From positions 2,781-66,780 of the forward strand of contig JAUZPB010000009.1 in the NCBI GenBank assembly GCA_030706145.1: 64,000 nucleotides of DNA, in the 5' to 3' direction. This document shows, one piece after another, positions 975 through 40,275 of this stretch. Position 1 is the first letter of the stretch, and every line of letters starts with the position of its first letter. Source of the stretch: Bacteroidota bacterium (GTDB lineage: Bacteria; Bacteroidota; Ignavibacteria; Ignavibacteriales; SURF-24). The notes beneath the pieces were generated by a model. It ran no database searches. It had not been told where the DNA came from and saw only the letters and a list, made by a program, of their open reading frames with translations. A program made the translations under genes and the position numbers.

Positions 975-1370
975 ATGGATTATAATTTATTAGCTCAAAA
1001 AGCTATTGAAGCAAAATTCAAAGCATTACCCACTTATTCAGGCTTCCATGTTGGAGCTGCACTACTAACCAGTGATGAAAAAGTTTACTTAGGGTGCAAT
1101 ATTGAGACCTCGTCATATAGTCTTACTATATGTGCAGAAAGGACAGCCTTATTCAAGGCAATTTCTGAAGGTGAAAGGAAATTTGAAGCTATTGCAATAG
1201 CAAGTGATGATCCTGGATATTGCCCTCCTTGTGGTGCTTGCAGGCAAGTTATGCTGGATCTTTGCGGAAATATTGATGTTGTAATGGTGAATCATAAAAA
1301 TGAAATCATTGTAAAGAAAATGTCTGAATTGCTTCCTTTTGCATTTGGTGATGAGTATCTGAATAAATAG
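975..1370 (+). CDS. cdd: Cytidine deaminase
   Basis: 131 aa with the zinc-binding CAERTALF and CPPCGACRQ motifs typical of homotetrameric cytidine deaminases. Confidence 0.9.
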   Translation: MDYNLLAQKAIEAKFKALPTYSGFHVGAALLTSDEKVYLGCNIETSSYSLTICAERTALFKAISEGERKFEAIAIASDDPGYCPPCGACRQVMLDLCGNIDVVMVNHKNEIIVKKMSELLPFAFGDEYLNK

Positions 1371-1504
1371 CAGGCTAAGAAATAAAATATTAATATTTAT
1401 AAAGTAATAAGAGAAATACCAAAAAAGAAATATGTAAAAGAAGTTATTCCCATTTTACAGATCTTTATGTCTATAGAAAACAAAACAAGAGAGAAATAAA
1501 TATT

Positions 1505-2077
1505 ATGATGGAATTTACTCCGCATTCCACGCCCAAAAATACAGGTTGGATTGAGGTAATAGCTGGTTGCATGTTCAGCGGAAAGACTGAAGAACTAATC
1601 AGACGACTCAGGCGAGCCAGAATTGCAAAGCAGAACGTTGTTGTCTTTAAGCCACTGATCGATAACAGATATTCAAATACTGAAATTGTCTCCCATAGTG
1701 AACAATCACTTCCCTCAATAACAGTTGAGACTCCCTCTGAAATACTTGAACTTTCAAAGAATGCCCAGGTAATTGGTATAGATGAAGCCCAGTTTTTTTC
1801 AAATGATCTTGTTGATGTTGTCAATAAGCTTGCCGATGAAGGAAAAAGAGTTGTAATAGCTGGACTTGATTTGGACTATCGTGGAATTCCTTTTGAACCA
1901 ATGCCCCAGTTACTTGCGGTCGCAGAATATATTACAAAGACACTAGCTATCTGTGTTTGTTGCGGTAATCCCGCCGATAGGACTCAAAGGACTATCCATT
2001 CCTCAGAAAGAGTAATTGTTGGTGCTGCTGATTCATATGAAGCACGCTGCAGAAAATGTCATTATATACCTGAGTAA
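1505..2077 (+). CDS. tdk: Thymidine kinase
   Basis: 190 aa with P-loop [20 protein letters not shown], and a C-terminal Zn ribbon (CVCCG...CRKCH). Confidence 0.93.
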
Positions 2078-2091
2078 AACAGAGCAAAAAG

Positions 2092-3438
2092 ATGGAACTA
2101 TTTTCACTTATTAGGGGCATAATTGGCTTGCTCCTTATTCTCGGAATTGCTTTTCTTTTTTCAAACAATAAGCGAAAGATCAACTGGCGACTTGTTACAA
2201 GCGGTATAGCAATTCAACTGGTTTTTGCAATTTTGATCATTCATAGTGAGGCTTTAAGGAAATTATTCTTTCCACTTGGATGGCCTAAGGACTTAATGAA
2301 TTGGATGGGAGGCGCAGTAGTAAGTCTTTTAGGATATACAATGAAAGGAGCTGAATTTGTTTTTGGACGGCTTGCAATAGGAGCTGGAACAGATAGTCTA
2401 GGCTTCTTTTTTGCTTTCCAGGTTTTGCCTACCATAATATTTGTATCGACCTTATCCTATGTATTTTATTATCTTGGTATACTACAAGCTGTTGTAAAGG
2501 TAATGGCCTTTGTTATGTCCAAAATAATGGGGGCAAGTGGTGCAGAGTCACTCTCAAATACAGCAAATATTTTTCTTGGCCACACCGAGGCACCTTTACT
2601 AGTTAGGCCATATATAGAGAAAATGACAAATTCTGAACTATTAACCATAATGATAGGTGGGATGGCTACAATATCTGCCGGAGTAATGGTAGGATACGTA
2701 ATGATGCTTGGGCAGGCTTATTCAGTTAATTTTCACCAGGATTTATATGCCTCCCAGATTAAATTTGCAGTTCATCTTCTTGCAGGAAGCGTAATGGCGG
2801 CTCCAGGATCAATTGTAATTGCAAAAATAATTTATCCGGAAGTTTGTGAATCTGAAACCAAGGGGTCAGTAAAACTCAAAGTCGACAAAAATGCATCCAA
2901 TATAATTGAGGCAGCTGCTTCCGGAGCTTCTGATGGGTTGAAGCTTGCTTTGAATGTTGCAGCAATGCTCATTTCATTCATTGCATTAATTGCATTGATC
3001 AATTATCTGCTTATCTCATTTGGATACTTTACTGGAATTAATAATTACCTTCAAACAAATTTTGGTCAGCCATTATCAATGCAATTAATATTTGGATTGT
3101 TATTGAAATATATAGCAATTGGCATTGGGGTTCCTTTTAGTGATGCACTTCATTTTGGCAGCTTGGTAGGTACAAAAGTAGTGTTAAATGAATTTGTTGC
3201 GTATATGGATCTGTCAAATTTAATTAAGTCAGGAGCAATGACTGAAAAAGGAATTATTATGGCCACATATGCACTTTGCGGATTTGCGAATTTTTCATCT
3301 ATTGCAATTCAGATTGGCGGTATTGGACCTATGGCTCCATCAAGAAGGAAAGATATAGCTGCTCTTGGCTTAAGAGCCGTGCTTGGTGGAAGCCTTGCTA
3401 CGTTTATGACTGCAACAATGGCAGGAATACTAATATAG
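2092..3438 (+). CDS. nupC: Concentrative nucleoside transporter (NupC/CNT family)
   Basis: 448 aa polytopic membrane protein with CNT-typical segments (GAEFVFG, ESLSNTANIFLGHTEAP, CGFANFSSIAIQIGG). It sits inside a nucleoside-salvage operon. Confidence 0.88.
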   Translation: MELFSLIRGIIGLLLILGIAFLFSNNKRKINWRLVTSGIAIQLVFAILIIHSEALRKLFFPLGWPKDLMNWMGGAVVSLLGYTMKGAEFVFGRLAIGAGTDSLGFFFAFQVLPTIIFVSTLSYVFYYLGILQAVVKVMAFVMSKIMGASGAESLSNTANIFLGHTEAPLLVRPYIEKMTNSELLTIMIGGMATISAGVMVGYVMMLGQAYSVNFHQDLYASQIKFAVHLLAGSVMAAPGSIVIAKIIYPEVCESETKGSVKLKVDKNASNIIEAAASGASDGLKLALNVAAMLISFIALIALINYLLISFGYFTGINNYLQTNFGQPLSMQLIFGLLLKYIAIGIGVPFSDALHFGSLVGTKVVLNEFVAYMDLSNLIKSGAMTEKGIIMATYALCGFANFSSIAIQIGGIGPMAPSRRKDIAALGLRAVLGGSLATFMTATMAGILI

Positions 3439-3488
3439 ATCTAAGTAAATAGTTCACATTTAATCGAAGTATTGAAATAATCGAGATT

Positions 3489-4310
3489 ATGTTAAATATA
3501 AAATTAAAGTATGATAAACTCTTAAATGAAATTAAAGCAATGGCTCCATTCAACCCGGAACTTGCAATAATTCTTGGTAGTGGTTTGGGTGATTTTGCCT
3601 CGAACTTAAATACAGTAAAAGAGATAAGGACTTCAGAGCTTTGTGAATATCCGGTCTCGACCGTACAGGGCCATGACGGAAAAATCTGCTTCTCAGAATA
3701 CAATGGAAAGAAAGTATTGTTGTTCAAAGGCAGAATTCATTTTTATGAAGGATACAAGTTAGAAGAATGCATTCTTCCGGTACACTTAGCAAAAGAGCTT
3801 GGATGTCAAAGAATATTGCTTACTAATGCTGCCGGTGGAATTAACCCGAATTTTTCGCCTGGAAACCTGATGATCAATACTTCATTTAATTCTATATTCA
3901 TAATGAATGAAATAACAGAGTTAATAGGTATTGCCTCTAAAGAAGAGAAAGACAGATCTCTGGATTTCCCTTCCAAAGCTTTCAATGAATTAATAGAAAA
4001 AGCCGCAATAAAAGAAAACATTCAAATACGCGAAGGCGTTTACTGGTATACAAAAGGACCCAGCTATGAAACTCCTTCTGAAATTAAGATGATTAAGAAA
4101 TATGGCGGAGACTGTGTTGGAATGTCAACTGTACATGAAGCAGTTTATGCTTCGGTTCTAGGGATGCAAGTTGCAGGTATTTCATGCATTACAAATTATG
4201 CAGCTGGAATAACAAACCTAAAGTTATCTCATAAGGAAGTTACAGAGACTGCCAACATGGTAAAGAATACGTTTGAAAGATTATTGAAGAGTGTTATTTC
4301 ATTATTATAA
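3489..4310 (+). CDS. punA: Purine nucleoside phosphorylase (trimeric PNP-I / PunA type)
   Basis: 273 aa with ILGSGLG, RIHFYEG, TNAAGG, VGMSTVHE and ISCITNYAAG motifs. Confidence 0.88.
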   Translation: MLNIKLKYDKLLNEIKAMAPFNPELAIILGSGLGDFASNLNTVKEIRTSELCEYPVSTVQGHDGKICFSEYNGKKVLLFKGRIHFYEGYKLEECILPVHLAKELGCQRILLTNAAGGINPNFSPGNLMINTSFNSIFIMNEITELIGIASKEEKDRSLDFPSKAFNELIEKAAIKENIQIREGVYWYTKGPSYETPSEIKMIKKYGGDCVGMSTVHEAVYASVLGMQVAGISCITNYAAGITNLKLSHKEVTETANMVKNTFERLLKSVISLL

Positions 4311-15568: not shown

Positions 15569-17533
15569 TTACCTGTAACCTTGCGCCTGTAAATTAAACA
15601 AATCGGAGTAGGTTCCTCCTTTTTCAAGCAGTTCGTTGTGAGTTCCCAGCTCTGTGCATTTGCCATTTTCTAGGACAAGTATGCGATCAGCCATTCGTAC
15701 GGTAGAAAAACGGTGGGAAATCAAAATGACAGTCTTCCCCTTTGTAAGATCGGCAAATCTTTGGAAGACTTCATATTCTGCCCGGGCATCCAGAGCTGCA
15801 GTAGGTTCATCAAGTATAAGAAGCTGTGCATCCCTCATATAAGCTCTTCCCAGAGCCATTTTCTGCCATTGTCCTCCCGAAAGATCAATTCCATCACTAA
15901 ACCTTCTACCGATCATTTGCTGATATCCGTTTGGGAGTTTTTCAATTACAGAATCGGCCAGACTTCTTAAAGCGGATTGTTTTATTTTTTCATAGTTTTC
16001 TTTTTCTTCAATTCTTCCAACTGCAATATTATTTGAGGCGGTCATTTGAAATTTAACGAAATCCTGAAAGATGACACCTATTTCCTTTCTTAGATCTTCG
16101 GGGTCAAATTCTTTCAAATCATGATCATCAAGAAATATTCTTCCTTCGGTAGGATCATATAATCTGGCCAGGAGTTTTACGAGAGTTGTTTTACCTGCGC
16201 CATTTTCACCAACTAATGCCAGTTTCTCCCTGGCATTTAATGTAAAGCTAACGTTTCTGATTGCCCATTTATCAGTATTTTGATATCGAAAGCTTACATT
16301 TTCAAATCTAAAACCTTTTAATATTGGGTGGGGAAATTTTCTGGGATTCTCTTTTACTTTAATCCTTGGTTCAAGTCTGAAGAAATCAAAGAAATCTCCC
16401 AGATATAAAGCTGCTTCAGCAATACTTGTAAAACGGTTTAGAACACCTTCAAGCAGGACTTTTAATCTGGAAAAAGAACCTGCTAAAAATGTCAGATCAC
16501 CTAGAGTTAAGTGTCCAGTTACTGTTCTTAGAATGATAATAATATAAGCAATATAGTAGCCAATGTTTCCAAAAGTTGAAAAGAATACTCCCCAGCCAGC
16601 TCTTTTAACTGCCAGGACTTTATTTTCGTTATAGTATTTATCTGAGAGTAACTTAAATCTTTCTATTAAGAAATCCGATAATCCAAATATCTTAACCTCT
16701 TTTGCAGTTTCATCACTTGCACCTGTATAGCGCAGGTAATCGAGTTCTCTTCTTTCCGGGGTCCAGCTATGAACTAATGAATAGGTTTTCTCATTAAAGT
16801 GGGATTCTCCGAGAAACGATGGAACGACAGAAATTATAAGTAAAAGAATAAGCCAAGGGTTAAATGAAATAAGGCCTATGGCTAAAAAGCCCATTGTAAT
16901 TACATCCTGCATCTGTCCAAGTACCTGAGACATGAGTATAGTTCTGTTCAATGTCTGTCTTCTAGCAAGCTCAAGCTTATCATAAAAAGCAGAGTCTTCA
17001 AATTGGTCAAGGTCCAACTGGGCTGCGTGTTGCATTAATCTAACAGATGATCTGTTTGAGAGCAGATCTCCTAAAAGGCTGTCGACCAATGCTATTCCGC
17101 GATTTAAAAGGTCATTTAATAGGACAAGCGAAAATTCAATTGTAACAAATGAGAAAAGCCGGTTGTAAGAGCCATGACCTGGTTGGAACCTAATAAGATG
17201 AACTACTTCATCAATTATCAGTTTCCCAATAAACAAAGTGACCAATGGCAGGATTGATTTTAATGCACGCAGGAATATATTTAGCAAAGTTAATTTTTTG
17301 CTGGTCTCCCAAACTAACTTAAAGAATTCCGGAAGATTTCCAAAAGCCTTGAAACGCTGCTTAAAATCAACTATATCTTCTTTTCCCCTGCTCTTTTTTG
17401 TCCTGTTTAGTACCCTGCCAAAGAATGTTAGTAATGGGTTCAAATCATGACCTGTAATTAGCCTTGTATTCTGTTCTAAGTCCCCCATCCTCAGAGACAT
17501 GAGTCCTGCGGTATCTTTTTGCAAGAAACTCAT
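15569..17533 (-). CDS. ABC exporter, fused permease/ATPase (multidrug/lipid exporter type); start uncertain
   Basis: N-terminal 6-TM domain, then Walker A GENGAGKTT, signature LSGGQWQK, and Walker B LLILDEPT. The ATG at 17533 overlaps the upstream DoxX gene by 89 nt. An in-frame TTG at 17443 lies 1 nt after the DoxX stop. Confidence 0.85.
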   Translation of the reverse strand: MSFLQKDTAGLMSLRMGDLEQNTRLITGHDLNPLLTFFGRVLNRTKKSRGKEDIVDFKQRFKAFGNLPEFFKLVWETSKKLTLLNIFLRALKSILPLVTLFIGKLIIDEVVHLIRFQPGHGSYNRLFSFVTIEFSLVLLNDLLNRGIALVDSLLGDLLSNRSSVRLMQHAAQLDLDQFEDSAFYDKLELARRQTLNRTILMSQVLGQMQDVITMGFLAIGLISFNPWLILLLIISVVPSFLGESHFNEKTYSLVHSWTPERRELDYLRYTGASDETAKEVKIFGLSDFLIERFKLLSDKYYNENKVLAVKRAGWGVFFSTFGNIGYYIAYIIIILRTVTGHLTLGDLTFLAGSFSRLKVLLEGVLNRFTSIAEAALYLGDFFDFFRLEPRIKVKENPRKFPHPILKGFRFENVSFRYQNTDKWAIRNVSFTLNAREKLALVGENGAGKTTLVKLLARLYDPTEGRIFLDDHDLKEFDPEDLRKEIGVIFQDFVKFQMTASNNIAVGRIEEKENYEKIKQSALRSLADSVIEKLPNGYQQMIGRRFSDGIDLSGGQWQKMALGRAYMRDAQLLILDEPTAALDARAEYEVFQRFADLTKGKTVILISHRFSTVRMADRILVLENGKCTELGTHNELLEKGGTYSDLFNLQAQGYR

Positions 17534-17933
17534 CTATGCTGAAAGTTCCTGCACCTAAAAGAAAAATACCTAGAGCTGAGGTGAGAAGCACCAAAGGAAA
17601 TTCAAAACCAGTTGGAGCAAAAAATCCATTTTTAAGGTGCACGGTAAATATTGCAACAGCCATATCTATAACTATTCCCAAGGCAAAGATTCTTGTCATA
17701 AATCCTAACAAGATAAAAATGCCGCCCAGAAATTCGGCCAAAGAGGCAGTATAAGCCAAAAATGGGGGTATTCCGAACTTTCCGAACCCATTGATCGTAG
17801 CTTCTAGGCCATGTCCTCCGAACCAGCCAAAGACCTTTTGAGAGCCATGCATAAAGAAAACAATTCCAATAATTACTCTTAGGAGCAGGACAAGTACAGA
17901 GGAATTAATAAAGGGTTTAAATATCAAGCGCAT
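17445..17933 (-). CDS. DoxX family membrane protein
   Basis: 162 aa with 4 TM helices and DoxX-like motifs (RVIIGIVFFMHGSQKVFGWFGG, FTVHLKNGFF). Confidence 0.8.
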   Translation of the reverse strand: MRLIFKPFINSSVLVLLLRVIIGIVFFMHGSQKVFGWFGGHGLEATINGFGKFGIPPFLAYTASLAEFLGGIFILLGFMTRIFALGIVIDMAVAIFTVHLKNGFFAPTGFEFPLVLLTSALGIFLLGAGTFSIDEFLAKRYRRTHVSEDGGLRTEYKANYRS

Positions 17934-18094: not shown

Positions 18095-19495
18095 TCACAT
18101 ACTTAATTTGTGTCTATTAATAAAGACTCCTCCAAAATGGATCAAAGCTGCTATAATTAGCCCTATAATCATTGGTTCTACTTCATTGAAAGGCGCAATT
18201 GATGAAAACTTGTCTCTGATAAAAAGCCAAAGAAGACTGGAAAGAAATGACACAATTACTTCTATAACGGCAATCGTACTAGATACCCGGAATTTCGGAT
18301 AATAAGCCGATACTACAAGAAGTATTATTCCTGGAATGCAAACGGTTCCAATTGTATACCAAAGATCAATAACAGATGGAATAAAATAAGCAAGCGAAAT
18401 CGAAAGAATAGCCGTTAAGACAATACCCAGGTAAGTATAAGATTTTAAGCTTTTTTGTTGTCTCTGGTTATTAAGCTTAAAAAGAAAATCTTTACTAATG
18501 GTAGTAGCACTTAGGAAAAAGAAACTATTAGAAGTTGAAAGAATGGTGGCAAACATAGCTGCATAAAACAATCCCTTTAGTCCAGAGCCCAAAAGTTTTT
18601 CGGCAAGTAAAGGATAGGATAAGACAGGAGTTTGAAGTCCTGGCAAAGCAGCTCTTGAATACAATCCAACGCTCGTAGTAAGGAAATCAAACAAAGCCCA
18701 AAAGAAAACAGAGATTATTATTCCATTTCTTGCAACATTTCCGTTTTTGGCAGCATAGCATCTTTGATGAAATCCGGGATCTGTAAAAGTCCACAAGGCA
18801 ATAAGGAACCAGACCAAAATATAAGTATAAGAAACTCCTCCCGGGATCTTCAAATGATTAGCAGGAAGGTTGGCCTGTAAGTAAGAGAAATCTCCTAAAT
18901 TAAGGTAAGCAACAATTAGCGTTACAATAAATCCAGCAAACATAATGAAGAATTGGAAGGCATCGGCAAAAACATAGGATTTATAGCCGCCCTTAAAAAG
19001 ATATCCTGCCGAAAGAAATGATCCAAGGATCAAGCTCCAAAAAATATTGATATGAAAAACCAAAGATAATAAATTTGCAACCATAAGAAGATATGGAGCT
19101 GGAGAAACCAATACGAAAAGTAATCCCGCACAAAGAAGCGCTGTTTTAGATCCATATACTTTTTCGAGTTTGTCAGGGATCGTGTAGAGAGAGGCCTCAC
19201 GTATTTTTTTTGAAAAAAAGATGGCAAATAATATGGCAAATACATAATATGGCAGGCCTTGCGTAAACCAGCTTAACAGGCCAAATCTATAGGTGAATTC
19301 GCCTACCCCCAGAATTCCACCATACCAGGTAGCGACATTGGTCAAAATAAATAAAAACAGGCCGACTTTTCTCTCTGAAAGTAAAAATCCTTCTGTTGTA
19401 GCTGTGTCTTTTTTGCCGGGAATAAGGCCAATGGAAATTACAAATATAAAAAATGCAAGTATTATAAAAATGTCTAGAGAGCTTAAGGAGATCAT
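18095..19495 (-). CDS. Sodium:solute symporter (SSS) family transporter; candidate thiamine or thiamine-precursor carrier by context
   Basis: 466 aa with about 13 TM helices and SSS-like N-terminal segments (FLLSERKVGLF...NVATWYGGILGVGE). It is the last gene of the riboswitch-TBDR-TPK string. Confidence 0.82.
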   Translation of the reverse strand: MISLSSLDIFIILAFFIFVISIGLIPGKKDTATTEGFLLSERKVGLFLFILTNVATWYGGILGVGEFTYRFGLLSWFTQGLPYYVFAILFAIFFSKKIREASLYTIPDKLEKVYGSKTALLCAGLLFVLVSPAPYLLMVANLLSLVFHINIFWSLILGSFLSAGYLFKGGYKSYVFADAFQFFIMFAGFIVTLIVAYLNLGDFSYLQANLPANHLKIPGGVSYTYILVWFLIALWTFTDPGFHQRCYAAKNGNVARNGIIISVFFWALFDFLTTSVGLYSRAALPGLQTPVLSYPLLAEKLLGSGLKGLFYAAMFATILSTSNSFFFLSATTISKDFLFKLNNQRQQKSLKSYTYLGIVLTAILSISLAYFIPSVIDLWYTIGTVCIPGIILLVVSAYYPKFRVSSTIAVIEVIVSFLSSLLWLFIRDKFSSIAPFNEVEPMIIGLIIAALIHFGGVFINRHKLSM

Positions 19496-19579
19496 CTATT
19501 TTTTGTTTTTTGTAGTTATTATTAATAATGAATAATTAGTGTAATATTGAAGTAATCCAACTGAAAAAAAAGCCTTTTC

Positions 19580-20254
19580 TTAAATTTCTAACTGTTCCAT
19601 TAACTCTTTGTGATATCGCATTATAGTTTTAAGCTCCCTAATAACAAATATTCTTCCATTTTTTATCTTAAGCTCGACTTTAGTTCCTGTAGCCTGATTG
19701 CTTGTGCCCTCTCTTTTCCCGAATGAGAGAGGCTCATTATCAATTGGGTATTTTAGTCCCTCTGATGTTATTTTGGTTTTATCATCAAATCCATAGATAG
19801 AAATGATCTCACCTGGATGTGTGTCGAACATAGTATTTCCAGTGTGGACTGTAAGAATTGACATTTCCGTAACGATTATAATTGAAATAAATTCTGAGAA
19901 TCTTTTTGCTATTCCGAGATTGCCAAAGGAATGATCAAGCCTATCCCCAATTACGCCTAGAAGAGCACATTCGGTAAATTTATTTTTTATTGCGAATTTA
20001 AGACATTTTTCAACATCAGTATCGTCTTGTCTTTTGAATTTCTTAATAATAGTTTTATCTGAAAAATAATCCAGATTTTCCTTTGTTATAGAATCAAGGT
20101 CGCCAATAATATAATCTGGAATTAGATTTAGTTTTCTTGCATTGTTTGCTCCACCATCAGCAGCAATCAATACTTCAAAACCATGCTTTCTTAAAAAAGG
20201 AAAAAGGCTTTTCTTTGGAGAGTTACCATTTGCAAGAATAATACATTTTTTCAT
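19580..20254 (-). CDS. thiN: Thiamine pyrophosphokinase (thiamine diphosphokinase)
   Basis: 224 aa with ADGGAN, IIGDLDSI and QDDTDVEKCL catalytic-domain motifs, plus a C-terminal thiamine-binding beta-domain. Confidence 0.85.
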   Translation of the reverse strand: MKKCIILANGNSPKKSLFPFLRKHGFEVLIAADGGANNARKLNLIPDYIIGDLDSITKENLDYFSDKTIIKKFKRQDDTDVEKCLKFAIKNKFTECALLGVIGDRLDHSFGNLGIAKRFSEFISIIIVTEMSILTVHTGNTMFDTHPGEIISIYGFDDKTKITSEGLKYPIDNEPLSFGKREGTSNQATGTKVELKIKNGRIFVIRELKTIMRYHKELMEQLEI

Positions 20255-20403
20255 TTACTATAAATTCACTCTTTATAATGATTTTATGAAAATCCTAAAT
20301 ATGTTAATATACTTAACATGTTAAAATACTATAGAAATCCTTTATTGCAAAAGAAAAGCCTTTTTCTATTTGATAAAGAAATCAAATACTTAAATTAAAA
20401 TAG

Positions 20404-22899
20404 CTAGAGTCCTAGCTGAATTCCAGCCTGAAAATTTCTTTCTGCGGCTGGGAAGAATTCCCCTCCAATTGCATAGGCAGCATATAGTTTATCGAAAATA
20501 TTATTTACCTGTGCAAAGACTTTTATAGAATTTGAAGAGAGAATATTGTTTAGTTCATAGCTAAAAAATAAATCTGCCGTAAAATATGGGTCTACCTGAT
20601 TATCTTCATAACTAACAAATCCAGGATAGCTTCTAAGGTATTCTGCCAATTTGCTGTCGTAATTATCAGAATAGAATTTCCCTACATACTTCCCGCTTAA
20701 AATAGCGAGCACGCCATTGTGAGTAAATTTGACCTGAGCATTTAATAAGAAATCAGGGAAGCCAGCTATTTTGTTACCGCTCAGATCTAAAGCTTGAACG
20801 ATCTTTGGCTCTTCAGATGAAGGGCTGAACTTAATGAATGTTTGTCCTTTGTTAATATAATTTTTGCTAAGTGTTCCATTAAAACCTAACTGCAGATCTT
20901 CAAAAGCCTTGAAAACACCACTAAGTTCAATTCCGCTATGAATTGTTTGATCAACATTGCCAGTTATTGGTTGGCCAAAGCGGTCCAATTTACCATTTTT
21001 AACTATCTCATTCTTAAAGATCATATAAAAAAGATTTAGGCTTAATGACATTCTTTCTGTTGAGAAGGAAGTTCCAGCTTCAATATCATTCATAGTTTCA
21101 GGTTTTACAAGCGGGTCGTTGAAGTTATAGCTTCCATCAGAATTTTTTTGGAATTGTGGCTCTTCGCCACCACTTGATTCAGCTGCATCATAATAATTAT
21201 TTAATCTTGGCTCGCGGCTAACTCTTGCAAAAGACAAATAGACATTTTGAGACGGAGCAAGTTTATAATTAATTCCAATTCTGGGATTAAAGAAAGTGTT
21301 ATTTACTTTGAAGTCATTGCCCAGGTACTTCTCATTGTAAATCCTGTATTGATTATAGGAGACTTGCAATTCAGCAAGCAAATTGAGAAGATCAGTGAGA
21401 TTGTAATTTTCATTTGCAAAAAAGTTAATTATGTTCCTTGCTCCATTGTACTGATAATACCTGAAATTTTTATCAATACCATCTGGTAAATTGTCGGCAT
21501 AGTTAATACTTCCCCAATGAAGCGATCTGTGTGCCCTTAATTCAGAGCCGACTATAAGCTCACCATTTTGATGTTTTATGCTAATGCGTGGGATCCAGCC
21601 AAATTGTTTGTTATCGACCTGAGCTCTAACCAGTGCATTAGTAGGATTTGAGTTTGCATGAATACCATTTTCGCTTGTCAGCCTAAAATAAGATGTATCT
21701 GCCCAAGAAGCATCATAATCAAAAAAACCATTGCCAAGTACCATAAACAAAGCTGAGTTAAAGACCATATCCTTATTTATATTCCACTCATTAAGTAATT
21801 CGAAATGAGGCTGGGAGAAGTTTTCAATTTCCTCTGGTCTTCTTTGGACAACATAGTCATATTGTCCATTAGAAGCTCCCCAATCAGAATAATTTTGCTT
21901 TCTAAGTTCTTTATCACTTATAGCGAATTTGGGAAGTCCTGTGTAAGACAGTCCATCGGCAATAGGTCCGCCATAAAGATTTATCTGTGAAGTAAAATTA
22001 TTATCATATCTTACAGCAGAAACATGGTAGGCATTAAAATCACTCCATGCAGAATTGCGGTATCCGCTGCTTAGTGTTTTGGATAATTTTACATATAAAG
22101 AATACCTATTATCAATAAGTCCGCTTGCAAAACTTGCACTATACTTTCTTGTATTATAGTTTCCAAGGGAAGAAGAAAAATCAAATCTGGGTTTATCACT
22201 AAAAGAAGAAGTAATAATATTAATTGAACCACCAACAGAAGGGTAGCCTATTATTCCAGCTCCAGCTCCTCTTTGAACCTGAATTAGTTCAGTACTTGAG
22301 AGTATGTCTGGAAAATCAAGCCAATAAACGTTATGGTCTTCAGGATCATTTTGAGGAATGCCATTTACCGCAACGGATATGCGTCTTTGGTCAAAACCCC
22401 TTATGCTCAAATAGTTATATCCAACTCCATTGCCAGCTTCTGAATAAAATGTTGTACTTGGCAAGTTGCTAAGGTATTCGGGAATGTCCTGGTCTATATA
22501 ATTGCTTTGAATATCTTCACGTTTAATCTTAGAATATGCAAGGGGTGTTACGCCTTCTTTAGCAATTGAACCCGTAACAAGAACTGTTTGTGAAGAAAGT
22601 ATTTTGGGAACAAGTTTAATTACATTTGAACCCTGAGCGTTAAACTGTGAAAGTAAAACACTCTTGCTGTTAAAACCAATAAAAGAAATGACAGCAAGAT
22701 CACTGCCAGAAAAAGGTCCCGATAAAGTAAACTCCCCTTTTTCATTACAGGTAGTACCCAAATGTGCCGATTCAATGAAAATGTTAGCGTTAGTTAGTGG
22801 TTTGCCACTTTCAGAATCAACAACTTTACCTTTGAAAGTCAAGGATTGTGGGTAGATAATCCCGAAAAATAAGAACAAAAGAATAATTAAATATTTCAA
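20404..22899 (-). CDS. TonB-dependent outer-membrane receptor with an N-terminal carboxypeptidase-regulatory-like domain
   Basis: 831 aa with a TTG start 5 nt after GGAGGA, a signal peptide, a CarbopepD_reg-like segment (FKGKVVDSESGKPLTNANIF), a plug (ISVAVNGIPQNDPEDH), and a beta-barrel. Directly downstream of the TPP riboswitch. Confidence 0.88.
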   Translation of the reverse strand: MKYLIILLFLFFGIIYPQSLTFKGKVVDSESGKPLTNANIFIESAHLGTTCNEKGEFTLSGPFSGSDLAVISFIGFNSKSVLLSQFNAQGSNVIKLVPKILSSQTVLVTGSIAKEGVTPLAYSKIKREDIQSNYIDQDIPEYLSNLPSTTFYSEAGNGVGYNYLSIRGFDQRRISVAVNGIPQNDPEDHNVYWLDFPDILSSTELIQVQRGAGAGIIGYPSVGGSINIITSSFSDKPRFDFSSSLGNYNTRKYSASFASGLIDNRYSLYVKLSKTLSSGYRNSAWSDFNAYHVSAVRYDNNFTSQINLYGGPIADGLSYTGLPKFAISDKELRKQNYSDWGASNGQYDYVVQRRPEEIENFSQPHFELLNEWNINKDMVFNSALFMVLGNGFFDYDASWADTSYFRLTSENGIHANSNPTNALVRAQVDNKQFGWIPRISIKHQNGELIVGSELRAHRSLHWGSINYADNLPDGIDKNFRYYQYNGARNIINFFANENYNLTDLLNLLAELQVSYNQYRIYNEKYLGNDFKVNNTFFNPRIGINYKLAPSQNVYLSFARVSREPRLNNYYDAAESSGGEEPQFQKNSDGSYNFNDPLVKPETMNDIEAGTSFSTERMSLSLNLFYMIFKNEIVKNGKLDRFGQPITGNVDQTIHSGIELSGVFKAFEDLQLGFNGTLSKNYINKGQTFIKFSPSSEEPKIVQALDLSGNKIAGFPDFLLNAQVKFTHNGVLAILSGKYVGKFYSDNYDSKLAEYLRSYPGFVSYEDNQVDPYFTADLFFSYELNNILSSNSIKVFAQVNNIFDKLYAAYAIGGEFFPAAERNFQAGIQLGL

Positions 22900-22917
22900 T
22901 GTAATCCTCCATAGAAA

Positions 22918-22945
22918 TAAAAAAAGCCGTCATGAAAACGGCTTT
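22918..22945 (-). terminator. Intrinsic terminator serving as the expression platform of the TPP riboswitch
   Basis: The minus-strand RNA AAAGCCGU-UUUCAUG-ACGGCUUU is followed by a U-run (UUUUUUUAUUU) and lies between the aptamer and the RBS. Its 5' arm (CCGUUUUC) is complementary to the aptamer P1 3' strand (GGAAACGG), which offers an antiterminator alternative. Confidence 0.6.
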
Positions 22946-22965
22946 GAATATTTAATTATTCTTTT

Positions 22966-23051
22966 CCGTTTCCCTACGCTGGTATTATCCAGATCAGGTT
23001 TAGGGTATGATCTCAGTCGCGAAAAATAAATCAACGCAACACCCCTAACGG
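22966..23051 (-). promoter_or_regulatory. TPP (thiamine pyrophosphate, THI-box) riboswitch aptamer
   Basis: The minus strand reads CCGUUAGGGGUGUUGCG...CGACUGAGAUCAUACCCUAAACCUGAUCUGGAUAAUACCAGCGUAGGGAAACGG. The GGGGUG, CUGAGA and ACCUGAUCUGGAUAAUACCAGCG elements are conserved, and P1 is closed by CCGUU/AACGG. Confidence 0.9.
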
Positions 23052-23145
23052 CGGCTATAAAAAGTTACAAATTATTATATAAGAACACTAACCAAAAAAA
23101 TAAAACTAATTAATAAATAACAACACAATATTTATGGACAAATAT

Positions 23146-28192: not shown

Positions 28193-28996
28193 TCATACTG
28201 TTAAAACAGATTTTACTATAGGCCCATATTCCTTAAATTTATTTTCTACTGAATTTTTAATTTCCTGAAAATAAGGTTCTTCCAATAAATGAAAATCCCT
28301 TTCTACAGGTAAATTTAACATGATCTGATCGATTATTTTTGCTGGTCTTGCACTAAGAAGAATAATTCTATCTGATAAAAAGAAAGCCTCATGAATGTTT
28401 GATGTTGAAAAAAGTATTGATATTCCAGTATTTTTCCTTACTTCTCTAAGTAGAGAGTAGATCTCATATCTTGTTTTTTCGTCCATATTTGAAAAAGGTT
28501 CATCAATAATCAGGAGTTTTGGTTTAGTTGCCAGTGCCCTTGCAAGTGATATCCTAAACCTGAAACCAAGGCTGCGATTATCTGGATAATGTTCTTCATA
28601 GCCACGCAGGCCAACAAGACTAAGAAGATTTTTAATTTGCATCTGTTTTTCTTCAGGATCTTTAACAGAAGACTTAAGAAAGCACTCAATGTTTTGTTTA
28701 ACATTGTACCATGGGTAAGAAGAAGGTGCTGAAGGGATAAATGAGAGAAAATAATCTGAAGAGGAATTCGATTTTTCAAAAGGAAATTCAATTTTACCAG
28801 AAGTAAGACTATCTATTCCGGCAATAATTTTCAGAAGAGTTGTCTTCCCGGCTGAGGCAGGGGCTAAAACAGTAACAAATTCATTTGCTTTTATTTCAAA
28901 GCTTAAATTTTCAAGAATTTGAAGTGAGTATCCAAGTCTGCCTTTGAATTCTTTTGTTAACTCACTAATTTTTACCAGATCTTGTGAATTTTGCAA
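28193..28996 (-). CDS. ABC transporter ATPase subunit (NitT/TauT-SsuB-like) with degenerate catalytic motifs
   Basis: 267 aa. Walker A reads APASAGKTT (canonical GPSGxGKS). The signature position reads RSLGF (canonical LSGGx). Walker B LLIIDEPF is intact. The H-loop position reads TSNIHEA (canonical THDxxEA). Confidence 0.78.
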   Translation of the reverse strand: MQNSQDLVKISELTKEFKGRLGYSLQILENLSFEIKANEFVTVLAPASAGKTTLLKIIAGIDSLTSGKIEFPFEKSNSSSDYFLSFIPSAPSSYPWYNVKQNIECFLKSSVKDPEEKQMQIKNLLSLVGLRGYEEHYPDNRSLGFRFRISLARALATKPKLLIIDEPFSNMDEKTRYEIYSLLREVRKNTGISILFSTSNIHEAFFLSDRIILLSARPAKIIDQIMLNLPVERDFHLLEEPYFQEIKNSVENKFKEYGPIVKSVLTV

Positions 28997-28999
28997 TTT

Positions 29000-29773
29000 T
29001 TATGGCTCCCAATGAATAAGCATTTTTTGAATGAGCTTTAATAAAAGGTCTCCCAAAATGATAATGATAGCCGTGGCAATAGAAAGAGCAAAAAGACCAG
29101 ATAGATCTCTGAACTCGTAACACTGCCTAAAAATCAAACCTATTCCAAATCTATTTCTAAAAGCTTCAAACAAGGGAATCAGCGCCCAAAGAATAAAGTT
29201 TAATTTAGATAAGTATTGAATAACTGAAGGTAAAGCACTTTTCCAGGTTATTTCTTGCAAAATGTTTTTCTCTTTCGATCTTATTGATATAGCCGCTTCA
29301 ATATATTCATCCTTTATACAATAGGCCGCGTCGAGAAACTTAAATAAAATGAGTATGAAGGCAATTAAAACAGAAATTAACAATTCAGCAAATACAGCTG
29401 AAGGTACCCAAAGGAAAGCAATTGCAGAAAATCCTATTATTGGTAAATACTTAAAAATCCTTAGTAACTCTTTTGCAATAATATTCCTATTTAGCTTCAA
29501 TAGGAACCTTGAGCTGAAATATAGCATGAAGTAACTAATGGCTAAAGAAAAATAAATCAGAGATGATGTAAAAAGTAAATTTTCAAATAAATGGTAGTGG
29601 TTAATTAGTGAAAAAAATGATTCAATCATAATTGAAGGTCGCGGCATTATTGAATCAGCGCGCAGAAGAAATTCGAAAAGCATCGAATAGATGAAAATGA
29701 TAAGCAGAATAAAGTAGAACAACTTTATTCTGCCATGATCTTTTAATTTTCCTAAATTATAGTTTGCTGGCAT
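29000..29773 (-). CDS. ABC importer permease (binding-protein-dependent inner-membrane component, SsuC-like)
   Basis: 257 aa with 6 predicted TM helices and an EAA-loop-like segment (EAAISIRSKEKNILQEITWKSALP). 3-nt gap to the ATPase gene. Confidence 0.72.
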   Translation of the reverse strand: MPANYNLGKLKDHGRIKLFYFILLIIFIYSMLFEFLLRADSIMPRPSIMIESFFSLINHYHLFENLLFTSSLIYFSLAISYFMLYFSSRFLLKLNRNIIAKELLRIFKYLPIIGFSAIAFLWVPSAVFAELLISVLIAFILILFKFLDAAYCIKDEYIEAAISIRSKEKNILQEITWKSALPSVIQYLSKLNFILWALIPLFEAFRNRFGIGLIFRQCYEFRDLSGLFALSIATAIIIILGDLLLKLIQKMLIHWEP

Positions 29774-36807: not shown

Positions 36808-39800
36808 TCAGAAATAAGCCCTAACTTCTGCCCTGGCCGTATTTACTACGCTCGAAGGGCCCTGAAGTCGTCCATCGTAACTTACAGTTGATTGCAGGTT
36901 AGAAGCAATTCTATAATCAAGATTTAATCTCCAGAAATAATTCTTTCCAAGCAAATTACCTTTTGTAATTTCAAAAGGAATATAATTAGTTGTCGTATTT
37001 GAAAGCAACTCATTTCTCTCAAATTCAAATCTGAATCTCCCTGTTTCAGCAAAAGAAAGAGTTATTCTAAGTGTCTGGGAGTTTTGATTTATTACTGTAG
37101 GATTTGCAGGCAAATCATCCTGACTTCTTGAAGCTAAAATCTTGAACCCCGCTTCAAGGTTTTTGATGGGTCTATATGAAAAATCTGTAGAAAAGCTATT
37201 GCCAGTTACTTTTCTGGACCTGTTTGAATTAACAGGAGCAGATGCATAATCAGTGGAATTTACAATGTCGGTTTGATTTGATATTTCCTCAACCATTCTG
37301 AATTTTATTCTTAAACTACGCTCTTTTGTAAAGCCCTTTTCAATACCATCACTATATTGTGCCAGGCTTTTTGTTTGCTGATACCTTAAGCGGAAAGAAA
37401 GTTCATTGCTGTTTTCAAAAATAAAAAGATCCTGCTGAAACAAATTATTACCTTTGATCGTAGTTGAATCATTAAGGAAAGAGGATAAATGGAGCAAATA
37501 AATCCTACTTAGGTTTGTTTCTTTGCTATTTTCCTCGACTCTATAGACAGTTTCAGTACTCAAAGGTGATAAGAAGAAATGAGCAAGTGTATTTTTTGCA
37601 AAAATCCTCTCAAAATTTAAGCGCCACCTTGTATTCATCTTTAGGTCAATTACTGGATATAGCTGGTCAGTTGGAAGACTCATTGATATATAATCGCCAT
37701 CATAAATTGTAGGTTCAAATTCATTTTGATCGGGTATTCCATTTTTATTTAGGTCGCCAAGATACTTATAATTGCCTGTTCCCTGCTGTACTTTTACAAA
37801 AACTCTTTCCAATCTAGCAGCTCTTTGTGTAGATCCCTCGTAATAGAAATCCCCATTTACTATGTTTTGCCAGAAATTGAATCTGCTTTGTGACCTTACC
37901 AAAATGGTTTCATTATTTGATAGTCCTTTTTTCTTAAATACATCAGTATATTTTTTATTTCTAATTGTAAAATTCAAGTTAGATGAGACTTCACTTATTC
38001 CATGATAACCTAGTTCATAGGACTGTGTATTTGAATAAGATTCTTTTGACATAATGCCATCTGCAGGATATGAATCTTCTCTAAAGGAATACTCGGCCTT
38101 AAAATTAAAACCTCCTAAGTTAATAAATTCAACTGCAGGAGAGGCTTCATAATACTTAAGGCTGCTTGATATGAGGCTATCAGCATTATTAATCTTGTCT
38201 TTTTTATCTTCTGCCAGAAAATTAAATGATGGTTTTACCTTTCCAAATAAATATGAAATTTTACCTGACTGTCTTAACCAATTACTTAAGTAGCCTTCGT
38301 TCCTTGATCCTACATAATCAAGAGTATAATCCAGATCATATTTTTTCCCTTCGCTAAGTTTCATATCACTTTTGAATCTTTTCGAGACAAAAGATTCACC
38401 TCTTTTTAGATAGCCATAAGTTGAATTTACATTTAGTTGTTCAATAGGAAAAAGATTAAGCGAAGCTTCTCTTAAGATCTCATTTTGAGCTATGGATGCA
38501 TCAGTAATATTATAGTTTCTTGAGAATTCGACTTCATTTATTCTATCAATTGAGGAAAATTTTTCTTGTATGTATCTGTCTCTATAACTAAGTCCGATCT
38601 TTCCAAGTTTCAGACCCCAAAGTTCAACTTCATTTGGTTTTACAACAAAGGAAAGATTTCTAGCAGAACCCATTTCATTTTTACTACTGAGGTTAGAAAA
38701 TCGATTCTTATCCCAAAGGCTTCCTGCTATTTCAACATTGAAGCTAACATCCTTAAAGGGTGAAGCTTCAATGGCAAGGTTTCCTGTTTGTTTTAATTCA
38801 GGAAGAGGAAGCAAAATTACCGGGGCGTAAGAGCCTTGGGCAATGCCTGCAAATTTATAATTGCCAAGACTTTCCTTTATATAATCGCCACTGCCAGAAC
38901 CAACGAAGCTAAAACTCACATTAAATAGTCCCTTGCCAGGAGTATAGATGTAATAAGAGAAAGGTTTTCCGTTTATCAGAGTATCAACCTTGGAGTATGT
39001 ACCTTTGATTATCCCTGTTGAATCTGCTGCAGCCGCTACTATTCCGGTTTTTGAAGCTGCAAGCCTGTTACTGCCAGCAGATGCAATCAGGCTCTTGTCA
39101 TCGTCAGAAAAGCTAAGATCAATTGGGGCATCCTGGTTATCTCCTTCGCGGAAATAATTTAACTTTACTTTCAATTTATTATCGAGCTGATCTGTCTGGA
39201 AACTAGTTCCAAAAAAGTTGCGGGCATATCGTCTGTCAGTATATTCAAAATCAACTGAAATGCGGCTAGCTGATGTAATGAGTTTATTTGGAGTAAAGCT
39301 TACTTCTGAGGTTGAATAGTCGATTGTATAGTCGTTTCTTTCTCCCCTTTTCATTTCTTCGCCATTAAGGTAGACCTTTTCGCTACCAGCAATAACGATA
39401 ATTTCTCTTTCACCATTTACTCCAGTCAGGCGATAAGGTCCCTGGACGCCTTCAGAGCCGGTGAACTGATTATTGTTGAATTTACCTTTTGAGCTAGCAA
39501 CAGCTATTGTAGCCTTTGAGCTGCCATAACCCACTTCTCCTTTTAATCCCTGAAGCTTTCTATCAATTGCGCCAAATTCTCCAAGCTTGCTTTGAAGGTC
39601 ATAATCGCCAAAAGTTCCAACAGCATTCGGATGTCTAATTTCAATGAATACTTTATCTAGCTCATCTAATCTCTCTGTATTCCCTTCGGGTTGAATTGGG
39701 ACATTTTCATCTGTAAGAGCAGCAACTATCTGGACATCGTCAGCAAGCTTCCCGGATAATTGCAGTCTTAAGCCGCTGTTTAATGTAAAATCCCTTGTAG

Positions 39801-40275
39801 TACCAACTGTGAAGCCTCTTACAATTGAACCACTTTTTTGGATCTCACGGCCAAAAATAGCATCAGATGAAAAACCGGTTTGTTCCTTTTGGATTATTCT
39901 TACTGTATCTGCTAGCTTATCATTATATTTTACAACGAGGCTCCTTCTTTTGTACTCCTTTTTTAAAGAAGATAGTATTGTACTGTATGTAACTGTGAAA
40001 GTATCTAGTACAGAAGGATGGATAGAATCTGAAAGTGAAACAGATGATGAGTTTAAAAAGACGGAATAATCCCCTTTAGCCAATACCTTTCCTTTCAATT
40101 TTACAGTTTCACTTGAAGGAATGATAGTAACAGCCGAAAGAAGGTACCGGTTGCTGAAGTTCACAAGGAAAGTATCGGTTACAACAACCGAATTAAATTT
40201 ACTCTGTGCACTTATACAAAGAGTAAGTGAAATCCAGATAGCGGTGATATGTATTAGTTTTAGGAATTGCTTCAA
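36808..40275 (-). CDS. Very large predicted outer-membrane beta-barrel protein of unknown function
   Basis: 1155 aa with a signal peptide (AIWISLTLCISAQS), alternating amphipathic beta-strand character throughout, and a C-terminal OMP beta-signal ending in RAYF. I could not assign a family with certainty. Confidence 0.6.
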   Translation of the reverse strand: MKQFLKLIHITAIWISLTLCISAQSKFNSVVVTDTFLVNFSNRYLLSAVTIIPSSETVKLKGKVLAKGDYSVFLNSSSVSLSDSIHPSVLDTFTVTYSTILSSLKKEYKRRSLVVKYNDKLADTVRIIQKEQTGFSSDAIFGREIQKSGSIVRGFTVGTTRDFTLNSGLRLQLSGKLADDVQIVAALTDENVPIQPEGNTERLDELDKVFIEIRHPNAVGTFGDYDLQSKLGEFGAIDRKLQGLKGEVGYGSSKATIAVASSKGKFNNNQFTGSEGVQGPYRLTGVNGEREIIVIAGSEKVYLNGEEMKRGERNDYTIDYSTSEVSFTPNKLITSASRISVDFEYTDRRYARNFFGTSFQTDQLDNKLKVKLNYFREGDNQDAPIDLSFSDDDKSLIASAGSNRLAASKTGIVAAAADSTGIIKGTYSKVDTLINGKPFSYYIYTPGKGLFNVSFSFVGSGSGDYIKESLGNYKFAGIAQGSYAPVILLPLPELKQTGNLAIEASPFKDVSFNVEIAGSLWDKNRFSNLSSKNEMGSARNLSFVVKPNEVELWGLKLGKIGLSYRDRYIQEKFSSIDRINEVEFSRNYNITDASIAQNEILREASLNLFPIEQLNVNSTYGYLKRGESFVSKRFKSDMKLSEGKKYDLDYTLDYVGSRNEGYLSNWLRQSGKISYLFGKVKPSFNFLAEDKKDKINNADSLISSSLKYYEASPAVEFINLGGFNFKAEYSFREDSYPADGIMSKESYSNTQSYELGYHGISEVSSNLNFTIRNKKYTDVFKKKGLSNNETILVRSQSRFNFWQNIVNGDFYYEGSTQRAARLERVFVKVQQGTGNYKYLGDLNKNGIPDQNEFEPTIYDGDYISMSLPTDQLYPVIDLKMNTRWRLNFERIFAKNTLAHFFLSPLSTETVYRVEENSKETNLSRIYLLHLSSFLNDSTTIKGNNLFQQDLFIFENSNELSFRLRYQQTKSLAQYSDGIEKGFTKERSLRIKFRMVEEISNQTDIVNSTDYASAPVNSNRSRKVTGNSFSTDFSYRPIKNLEAGFKILASRSQDDLPANPTVINQNSQTLRITLSFAETGRFRFEFERNELLSNTTTNYIPFEITKGNLLGKNYFWRLNLDYRIASNLQSTVSYDGRLQGPSSVVNTARAEVRAYF

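Follow-up and report, generated by a model that had tools for sequence, protein, structure and literature searches.

A TPP riboswitch-led locus of receptor, kinase and sodium:solute symporter family carrier, proposed to salvage thiamine in Ignavibacteria

Which protein carries thiamine across the inner membrane when a TPP riboswitch, an outer membrane receptor and a thiamine-phosphorylating kinase stand together and PnuT is missing from among them? In Bacteroides thetaiotaomicron, the receptor BT2390 (also called Omr1 or OMthi), the carrier PnuT and thiamine pyrophosphokinase (TPK) are placed under TPP riboswitches. The stretch of Ignavibacteria DNA analyzed here (64,000 nucleotides; hereafter the window) contains four minus-strand elements: a TPP riboswitch, a TonB-dependent receptor (TBDR), TPK and a sodium:solute symporter (SSS) family protein, the last of which occupies the slot that PnuT holds in Bacteroides. 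Matches to Rfam, Pfam and TIGR01378 placed these elements at essentially the positions given in an initial annotation, which had read them as a thiamine-scavenging locus under the TPP riboswitch, a reading that we retain; the two intergenic spacers are also as it described them.

The TPP riboswitch aptamer (THI element) lies at 22954-23056 on the minus strand, where it matches Rfam family RF00059 along the full length of the model (positions 1-105) and scores 70.0 bits (E 1e-11), well above the gathering score of 54.3; it is the sole Rfam match in the 64-kb window. Its P1 stem is a CCGUU/AACGG pairing, and folding the aptamer alone yields a three-way junction. A terminator scan and fold energies identified the expression platform at 22914-22945 (minus strand) as an intrinsic terminator followed by seven uridines: the hairpin, running from 22945 to 22923, reads AAAGCCGUU-UUCAU-GACGGCUUU, then U7, with an energy of -11.8 kcal/mol (z -5.1). 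The ligand-free minimum free energy fold of 22895-23062 offers an antiterminator, in which the 3' strand of P1 (AAACGG) pairs with CCGUUU of the terminator 5' arm. From these folds, the expression platform is predicted to be able to switch between antiterminator and terminator; abundant TPP would bind the aptamer, P1 would close, the hairpin and its U-run would be freed, and transcription would end ahead of the receptor gene.

The TBDR encoded by that gene (20404-22899, minus strand; 831 aa) contains the Pfam domains CarbopepD_reg_2, Plug and TonB_dep_Rec_b-barrel, starts at a TTG codon with GGAGG ahead of it, and has a signal peptide-like N-terminus. The window TBDR is encoded directly downstream of the TPP riboswitch, an order that is also found in 68 of the 80 Ignavibacteria loci and at about 30 loci from metagenomes. 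Full-length receptors led by the riboswitch in distant loci score roughly 720-1175 bits against an HMM made from these receptors. The protein is an outer membrane receptor, and we propose that its ligand is thiamine. The next gene (19580-20254, minus strand; 224 aa) encodes TPK, identified as an equivalog of thiamine diphosphokinase by TIGR01378 (159.3 bits, cutoff 76.4) and by its TPK_catalytic (PF04263) and TPK_B1_binding (PF04265) domains. The substrate of TPK is free, complete thiamine.

The 149-nt spacer between TBDR and TPK (20255-20403, minus strand) forms only weak A/U-rich hairpins, and a weak terminator-like hairpin of 6 bp (20417-20402) overlaps the TBDR stop; in relatives its length is anywhere between -1 and about 520 nt, with a median of about 25. 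The 84-nt spacer between TPK and the SSS gene (19496-19579, minus strand) has no stable structure (minimum free energy -8 kcal/mol, z -0.05). Terminator and promoter scans, together with folding, revealed no convincing strong internal terminator or promoter in either spacer, and promoter-like sites are not enriched in the region (27 as against 22.4 in shuffles). A sigma-70-like hexamer pair does lie at 19647-19620, within the 3' end of TPK, and together with the 84-nt gap it favors a reading in which the SSS protein is a neighbor with an unrelated substrate (pantothenate or proline, for example) that has a promoter of its own in the gap and whose adjacency to TPK is inherited synteny. Against such independence, the TPK and SSS genes overlap in most species, and overlap or lie no more than 30 nt apart in 69 of 73 Ignavibacteria loci. 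We conclude that the four elements probably form one TPP-riboswitch-repressed salvage operon, presumed to be co-transcribed here, in which the TBDR would capture thiamine, the SSS protein would import it and TPK would trap it.

The proposed importer (18095-19495, minus strand; 466 aa, about 13 transmembrane helices) matches PF00474 with 98.6 bits (cutoff 22.8) and falls under all NCBIfam equivalog cutoffs. An AlphaFold (AF2) model with a pLDDT of 96.6 shows 13 long helical segments, in agreement with hydropathy and consistent with the 13 transmembrane helices first assigned to it. Foldseek matched this model to CHT1, SGLT (SGLT2) and SiaT with TM-scores of 0.82-0.87 (E 1e-15 to 1e-11), although the sequence is no more than 15-21% identical to those of the solved structures; the predicted fold is the canonical SSS fold of LeuT type. 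CHT1, a choline carrier, is the best structural match, and thiamine is likewise a cation; this is suggestive, and at 16% identity we set it aside as evidence for the substrate. An alignment of the subfamily revealed its distinguishing marks: a DPxFHQRC motif, two invariant residues (W266 and D270) and, in TM8, a Na2-site-like pair, S320-T321, which aligns with S340-T341 of PutP and S342-S343 of SiaT and whose S320 is conserved in at least 90% of members. Clustering at 50% identity divides the subfamily into at least 259 clusters, and all of the source names seen read 'sodium:solute symporter family protein' only.

We propose that this protein is an inner membrane Na+/thiamine symporter, with both thiamine as substrate and Na+ coupling suggested by the evidence assembled here. 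The conserved Na2-site residues bear on a different possibility, namely that it carries TMP or TPP, or mainly exports or facilitates thiamine for sharing, and is not a Na+-driven importer. Phosphorylated thiamine might pass through TonB-dependent receptors of this kind, and excretion roles have been speculated upon for secondary vitamin carriers (PMC6593275); yet TPK would be redundant were TPP imported, repression by TPP suits an importer and not an exporter, and the Na2-site residues are conserved. We consider this possibility very improbable, and retain a Na+-driven importer of thiamine as the proposed function.

The initial annotation had brought up ThiV, an SSS-family candidate predicted from comparative genomics of THI elements; the carrier named ThiV by Rodionov in 2002 corresponds to the SSSP/SAR11_0811 clade (PMC4260697). 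The window protein is not a ThiV: phmmer gave no match between it and SAR11 ThiV at E<=10, BLASTP aligned the two at 26% identity over 288 aa of the N-terminal half with 38.9 bits, and the subfamily profile preferred PanF (137 bits) and PutP (116) over ThiV (88), SSSQ (29), SSSP (21) and SSSF (9), results that together rule out ThiV/SSSP. An 'FHQ' near the TM6 break is shared with ThiV, but when the two are compared by the position of the conserved Arg in ThiV, it is shifted by about four residues; we did not count it as evidence. By sequence comparison, the window protein belongs to an SSS lineage apart from ThiV, one apparently recruited to the TPP regulon.

PanF and PutP are the closest characterized relatives of this lineage, a point in favor of an unrelated substrate. 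However, the window protein scores 74.2 bits against the panF model (TIGR02119; cutoff 328) and 53 bits against that of PutP (TIGR02121; cutoff 515.5), so far under these curated equivalog cutoffs that PanF or PutP function is ruled out. Among the window ORFs scanned, there was no NMN_transporter/PnuT (PF04973-type), the neighbor of TPK being the SSS gene, and the 46 window ORFs of at least 130 aa, which represent 64 kb of the genome only, include neither thi biosynthesis genes nor pnuT.

Conservation of the locus provides the main evidence that the SSS protein belongs with its neighbors. We compared 80 GTDB species loci from Ignavibacteria (L001-L080), 66 of which include at least 3.8 kb of upstream sequence; in 63 of these 66 the order is riboswitch-TBDR-TPK-SSS, and since this arrangement recurs in dozens of species, it is far beyond chance. 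An unrelated MltD-like gene upstream is conserved within Ignavibacteria too, so synteny in this class is not decisive alone, a point in favor of the unrelated-neighbor reading. In two loci (L009 and L037), the TBDR and riboswitch are lost and the surroundings are new, but the adjacency of TPK and SSS is kept: the thiamine linkage of the SSS gene survives rearrangement. No TPP riboswitch reached the Rfam gathering score in seven loci that have no TBDR, these two included (L009, L012, L037, L092, L146, L155 and L172), and their TPK-SSS pairs are under other regulation or none. Two genomes from anammox granules, CHB1 and CHB2, are by their label presumably Chlorobi/Ignavibacteria. Both are without thiE and thiL (PMC5460018).

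Beyond Ignavibacteria, we sampled 11 distant SSS representatives singly (30-48% identity). TBDR-TPK-SSS is found at two of them, L081 and L086, the latter with a 42%-identical SSS protein and a cluster that includes a Calditrichaceae-named protein; TPK-SSS is found at three (L082, L083 and, from Chthonomonas, L092), and riboswitch-SSS-TBDR at one, from Eisenbacteria (L085). The other five (L084, L087, L089, L091 and L093) lack a thiamine neighbor, so the subfamily may not be functionally uniform, which gives the unrelated-neighbor explanation some further room. When a 39%-identical relative was used to sample metagenomes, 36 loci had enough upstream DNA, and 33 of them are thiamine-linked: riboswitch-TBDR-TPK-SSS in 12, riboswitch-TBDR-SSS in 13, riboswitch-SSS-TBDR in two, TPK-SSS in three, and riboswitch-SSS, riboswitch-TPK-SSS and TBDR-TPK-SSS in one each. 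All 12 nhmmer riboswitch calls, from the 11 loci with a call, were upheld by Rfam. The riboswitch stands directly ahead of the SSS gene in L085, L149, L152, L162 and L165, among others of these arrangements. By source name, the taxa include Calditrichaceae, Eisenbacteria, Zixibacteria, Acidobacteriota, Marinimicrobia and Armatimonadota. Linkage to TPK or riboswitch thus spans several gene orders and phyla, as the initial annotation had proposed to look for, and the outcome is strongly positive; an SSS neighbor with an unrelated substrate is, given this linkage and its persistence in L009 and L037, quite improbable, and a carrier that serves the thiamine locus is the reading that we keep.

Is the substrate thiamine itself? 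The SSS protein could import a thiamine precursor or breakdown product (HMP, AmMP, FAMP or HET), as proposed for SAR11 ThiV, and the initial annotation had also allowed for HET or HMP. Elsewhere in the SSS family, lineages controlled by TPP riboswitches (ThiV/SSSP) are tied to HMP uptake (PMC11452348, PMC4260697), and a riboswitch alone cannot tell the vitamin from its vitamers. Yet the window protein lies outside the ThiV/SSSP clade, and no thiD, thiM, thiE or tenA was found near the SSS gene in the Pfam-annotated loci (the window and L081-L093; the 160 bulk loci were screened for TPK, TBDR and riboswitch only). The conserved partner is TPK, which requires complete thiamine, and the pairing of receptor with TPK follows the logic of the whole-thiamine route of Bacteroides. 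Since the only linked enzyme is TPK, the data point to intact thiamine as the substrate, and uptake of HET, HMP or another precursor is unlikely. In the route that we propose for intact thiamine, the TBDR would bring it across the outer membrane, the SSS protein, probably with Na+ as the driving ion, would carry it through the inner membrane, and TPK would convert it to TPP in a single step; the SSS protein would be a non-orthologous replacement of PnuT. On balance, we lean toward the broader view that the members of the subfamily are Na+/thiamine symporters that evolved independently, so that the TPP regulon, having captured ThiV/SSSP/SSSQ and SSSF, would have captured yet another SSS lineage. 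With a dedicated TBDR and TPK, the subfamily would then provide a major route of B1 acquisition in Ignavibacteria and in a number of phyla with few cultivated members.

Auxotrophy for vitamin B1 is one of the factors that shape microbial communities, and in surveys it is deduced from marker genes for transporters. With a widespread carrier annotated only generically, many genomes would be scored as having no known inner membrane B1 transporter, a concern for Ignavibacteria and, by source name, for Calditrichaceae, Zixibacteria, Marinimicrobia, Acidobacteriota and Eisenbacteria. One such marker list comprises thiB, thiT, thiV, thiY, cytX, ykoF, thiPerm and omr1 (PMC10881298); if our proposal is true, only omr1, the receptor, could detect this route. 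A subfamily that is named and tested would improve auxotrophy prediction and the design of cultivation media. To the Pnu facilitators and ABC/ECF systems it would also add a third mechanistic class of inner membrane partner for vitamin uptake through TonB-dependent receptors, and it would be a clear example of repeated, independent recruitment of SSS carriers to one riboswitch regulon.

Among known systems, PanF and PutP, CHT1, SGLT1/2, SiaT and vSGLT share with the window protein their fold (TM-score 0.82-0.87) and the TM8 Na2-site Ser-Thr, whereas its genomic context is thiamine and neither pantothenate nor proline. The ThiV/SSSP carriers (SAR11_0811, Methylobacillus ThiV and the algal SSSP, SSSQ and SSSF) resemble it in being PF00474 carriers of about 13 transmembrane helices associated with a TPP riboswitch, but ThiV is linked to the HMP salvage genes tenA and thiD/E/M/G, and the window subfamily to TPK and a TonB receptor. 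The arrangement itself is already known: in Caldithrix abyssi, Cabys_3975-3977 have the same content, were termed a candidate thiamine transport system in 2017 and include a receptor that resembles BT2390 (PMC5317091). That organism belongs to a different phylum, and the single paragraph given to these genes in its genome paper does not define the family (PMC5317091). What stands of the initial interpretation is the scavenging locus, the PnuT slot and the linkage of the SSS clade to thiamine genes, and what needs correcting is any identity with ThiV, HET or HMP as a substrate (unlikely) and any novelty of the architecture. A further likeness is to B. thetaiotaomicron, which also combines a TPP riboswitch, a TonB-dependent receptor, an inner membrane carrier and a TPK that traps thiamine as TPP, and the window TBDR has the CarboxypepD_reg N-terminal domain typical of the Bacteroidota style; unlike Bacteroides, where the carrier is the facilitator PnuT, the window has an SSS carrier of LeuT fold that is probably Na+-coupled.

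The initial annotation proposed a thiamine-scavenging locus built from a TPP riboswitch, a TonB-dependent receptor (TBDR), a thiamine pyrophosphokinase (TPK) and a sodium:solute-symporter-family (SSS) protein, and Rfam, domain and equivalog matches confirmed each part as well as the gap sizes. The full-length riboswitch (22954–23056, minus strand; 70.0 bits versus a gathering score of 54.3) is the sole Rfam family found in the 64-kb window, and is followed on the same strand by genes for the TBDR (20404–22899; CarboxypepD_reg-like, Plug and barrel domains), TPK (19580–20254; TIGR01378 equivalog, 159 bits versus a cutoff of 76) and the SSS protein (18095–19495; 466 aa, PF00474), with spacers of 149 nt (TBDR-TPK) and 84 nt (TPK-SSS). 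The first gene has a TTG start with GGAGG 6 nt ahead; an MltD-like LysM lytic transglycosylase lies upstream of the operon, and a DoxX protein and an ABC exporter lie downstream.

The leader also holds a putative expression platform: a typical intrinsic terminator, with a 9-bp hairpin (22945–22923, minus strand; −11.8 kcal/mol, z = −5.1 relative to shuffles) followed by U7, begins 8 bases 3' of the aptamer. In the ligand-free fold of the leader (22895–23062), the P1 3' strand (AAACGG) pairs with the terminator 5' arm (CCGUUU), so that the terminator does not form; the aptamer folded alone adopts the canonical junction with P1 closed. This anatomy is that of a predicted transcriptional OFF switch. 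On one metagenome contig (L142), tandem TPP riboswitches (526–617 and 682–775; 63.9 and 76.8 bits) stand ahead of TBDR-SSS, and tandem aptamers would make the TPP response steeper.

We predict that the operon is a single transcript, and nothing in the structure and promoter scans argues against this: stable structure is absent from the 84-nt spacer (z about 0), hairpins in the 149-nt spacer are weak and A/U-rich, with a further one of 6 bp across the TBDR stop codon, and sigma-70-like sites show no enrichment over shuffles in the operon region. The 12-mer GAAAAGGCTTTT occurs three times in the operon with at most one mismatch (19568–19579, 20201–20213 and 20353–20365), once per spacer and once within TPK, and eight times in the whole window versus 2.3 expected; these copies could represent weak A/U hairpins. 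The listed ORFs for the ABC exporter (15569–17533) and DoxX (17445–17933, minus strand) share 89 nt, and the true start of the ABC gene is therefore probably farther downstream. In none of 80 Ignavibacteria loci does either gene have a tblastn match of at least 60 bits, so the SSS gene appears to be the last of the operon.

These 80 loci (56–73% identity) came from a search in which each GTDB species was represented by one genome; to read their context, the window proteins served as tblastn queries and the window aptamer as the nhmmer query. The SSS protein has a 100%-identical match in a Bacteroidota MAG, and almost all of its close relatives bear the names Ignavibacteria, Ignavibacteriales or Melioribacteraceae. 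The full riboswitch-TBDR-TPK-SSS arrangement is present in 68 of the 80, and 9 of the 12 others are contigs ending upstream; given at least 3.8 kb of upstream sequence, it is found in 63/66. TPK and SSS overlap or lie at most 30 nt apart in 69/73 loci, a spacing that reads as a signature of co-translation, and the window's 84-nt gap falls at the long end of this distribution. The unrelated MltD gene is likewise syntenic, so linkage within Ignavibacteria alone could reflect inheritance. Three exceptions (L009, L012 and L037) speak against mere inheritance: all have lost both the receptor and, by Rfam, the riboswitch, and two lie in other neighbourhoods (L009 and L037; NAD synthase/DsbD and peptidase S9, respectively) with TPK still directly beside SSS, while in L012 three inserted genes separate TPK from SSS. 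Several close homologues (P0004, P0006, P0009 and locus L001; 67–73% identity) come from MAGs labelled as Bacillota, Syntrophothermus or Syntrophomonadaceae. Since the L001 locus includes a TonB-dependent receptor, which belongs to diderm bacteria, these contigs are probably mis-binned Ignavibacteria.

The linkage extends well beyond this class. An exhaustive representative search (E ≤ 1e-30) yielded 259 clusters at 50% identity, and a rough neighbour-joining tree groups them as one star-like subfamily separate from PanF and PutP. Among 11 distant representatives (30–48% identity), TBDR-TPK-SSS occurs at the loci of proteins P0122 and P0127 (the latter's cluster including a Calditrichaceae protein), TPK-SSS at those of P0125, P0131 and P0218 (Chthonomonas, Armatimonadota), and riboswitch-SSS-TBDR at that of P0147 (Eisenbacteria), where a 66-bit TPP riboswitch immediately precedes the SSS gene; five of the 11 lack a thiamine neighbour. 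P0147, named 'TonB-dependent receptor' in its source, is one unbroken 1238-aa ORF joining SSS and receptor behind the riboswitch (L085:5855–9717, a MAG); a true fusion of inner-membrane carrier and outer-membrane barrel is implausible, and the joined frame more likely reflects loss of a stop codon or faulty assembly. At another distant locus (L083:1–2584), a membrane-protein fragment with a 'Gate' nucleoside-recognition domain precedes TPK-SSS, with no TonB receptor there.

A metagenome scan seeded with a 39%-identical member added 80 loci, read with purpose-built HMMs and a riboswitch profile. Thiamine linkage was found in 33 of the 36 with enough upstream DNA: riboswitch-TBDR-TPK-SSS in 12, riboswitch-TBDR-SSS in 13, riboswitch-SSS-TBDR in 2, riboswitch-SSS, riboswitch-TPK-SSS and TBDR-TPK-SSS in 1 each, and TPK-SSS in 3, SSS standing alone in the remaining 3. 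An Rfam re-check of 14 loci upheld 12/12 riboswitch calls, in 11 loci, the other three being TPK-SSS only, with no such call. Source names further include Zixibacteria, Acidobacteriota and Marinimicrobia. One locus (L169:3398–6380) has a TPP riboswitch (72.8 bits), a DUF1559/N-methylation-motif prepilin-like protein of a type typical of Planctomycetota, TPK and SSS without a TonB receptor, and looks planctomycete-like. TPK is normally single-copy and the TPP riboswitch is a rare element; chance cannot account for their recurrence beside SSS in several phyla and several gene orders. The co-localisation that the initial annotation had named as a check on its proposal is therefore seen both in Ignavibacteria (63/66) and in metagenomes (33/36).

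The initial annotation had also brought up ThiV, a predicted SSS-family candidate for thiamine transport. The window symporter scores under all NCBIfam equivalog cutoffs (panF, 74 versus 328; PutP, 53 versus 515), and we compared it with reference sequences from an alignment in PMC11452348 (supplementary file 3): ThiV (SAR11_0811), PanF, PutP, SiaT, and algal and fungal SSSP, SSSQ and SSSF. By phmmer it matched PanF alone (56 bits) and not ThiV; BLASTP against ThiV gave 26% identity over 288 residues (38.9 bits). A subfamily profile scored PanF at 137 bits, PutP 116, ThiV 88, SiaT 58, SSSQ 29, SSSP 21 and SSSF 9; true members reach 180–560 bits with a single-sequence query. Rodionov's ThiV (Methylobacillus) is SSSP (PMC4260697). 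Together, these comparisons rule out a ThiV identity, the profile favouring PanF and PutP, and the protein is a further SSS lineage that the TPP regulon has recruited. Its AlphaFold model (106-sequence alignment; pLDDT 96.6, pTM 0.94) is very confident, with about 13 transmembrane helices and TM-scores of 0.8–0.87 to CHT1, SGLT1/2, SiaT, NIS and vSGLT. S320-T321 occupy the alignment positions of the Na2-site pair in PutP and SiaT; G72, W266 and D270, invariant across the subfamily, and a nearly invariant DPxFHQRC motif are, by inference only, candidate substrate-site residues.

TPK, which pyrophosphorylates free thiamine, is the only enzyme co-occurring with SSS, and no HMP or thiazole salvage genes were seen in Pfam-annotated loci; this argues for intact thiamine as the predicted substrate, rather than the precursors proposed for ThiV, and leaves the HET/HMP alternative of the initial annotation unsupported. 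Among the 46 ORFs of at least 130 aa scanned in the 64-kb window, none is a thi biosynthesis gene or pnuT. Genomes labelled CHB1 and CHB2, from anammox granules, both lack thiE and thiL (PMC5460018), which, if the label denotes Chlorobi/Ignavibacteria, fits dependence on this uptake route. The receptor would capture thiamine, the SSS protein would import it with Na+, TPK would trap it, and the riboswitch terminator would provide feedback. The operon is thus very likely a TPP-regulated thiamine salvage unit, and the SSS protein probably imports thiamine itself.

Elsewhere in the window are a nucleoside salvage cluster (975–4310, plus strand; cytidine deaminase, thymidine kinase, CNT-family Na+/nucleoside transporter, purine/uridine phosphorylase) and a two-gene ABC importer fragment (28193–29773, minus strand; ATPase and BPD_transp_1 permease) with no binding-protein gene among the scanned neighbours and no riboswitch nearby. 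An 1155-aa ORF (36808–40275, minus strand) that matched nothing in Pfam at E ≤ 1e-5 adjoins NUDIX, PfkB and IF-2B-like genes, the last probably methylthioribose-1-phosphate isomerase.

The scavenging interpretation therefore stands in outline, without the ThiV affinity, the HET/HMP alternative or the implied novelty. Our literature search found one publication describing this gene content, and no experimental work on such loci: in Caldithrix abyssi, a TPP riboswitch, TonB receptor, sodium-solute symporter and TPK, the same content as here, were reported as candidate thiamine transport (PMC5317091). The window locus is thus a fresh example of a locus type that had been noticed before by computational prediction. 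What is new is the breadth and robustness of the thiamine linkage, the definition of the SSS subfamily and its distinction from ThiV, which give a large unnamed transporter family a solid, testable annotation that would not surprise a specialist. The operon follows the same logic as the Bacteroides receptor/PnuT/TPK system, but with an SSS carrier in the place of PnuT.
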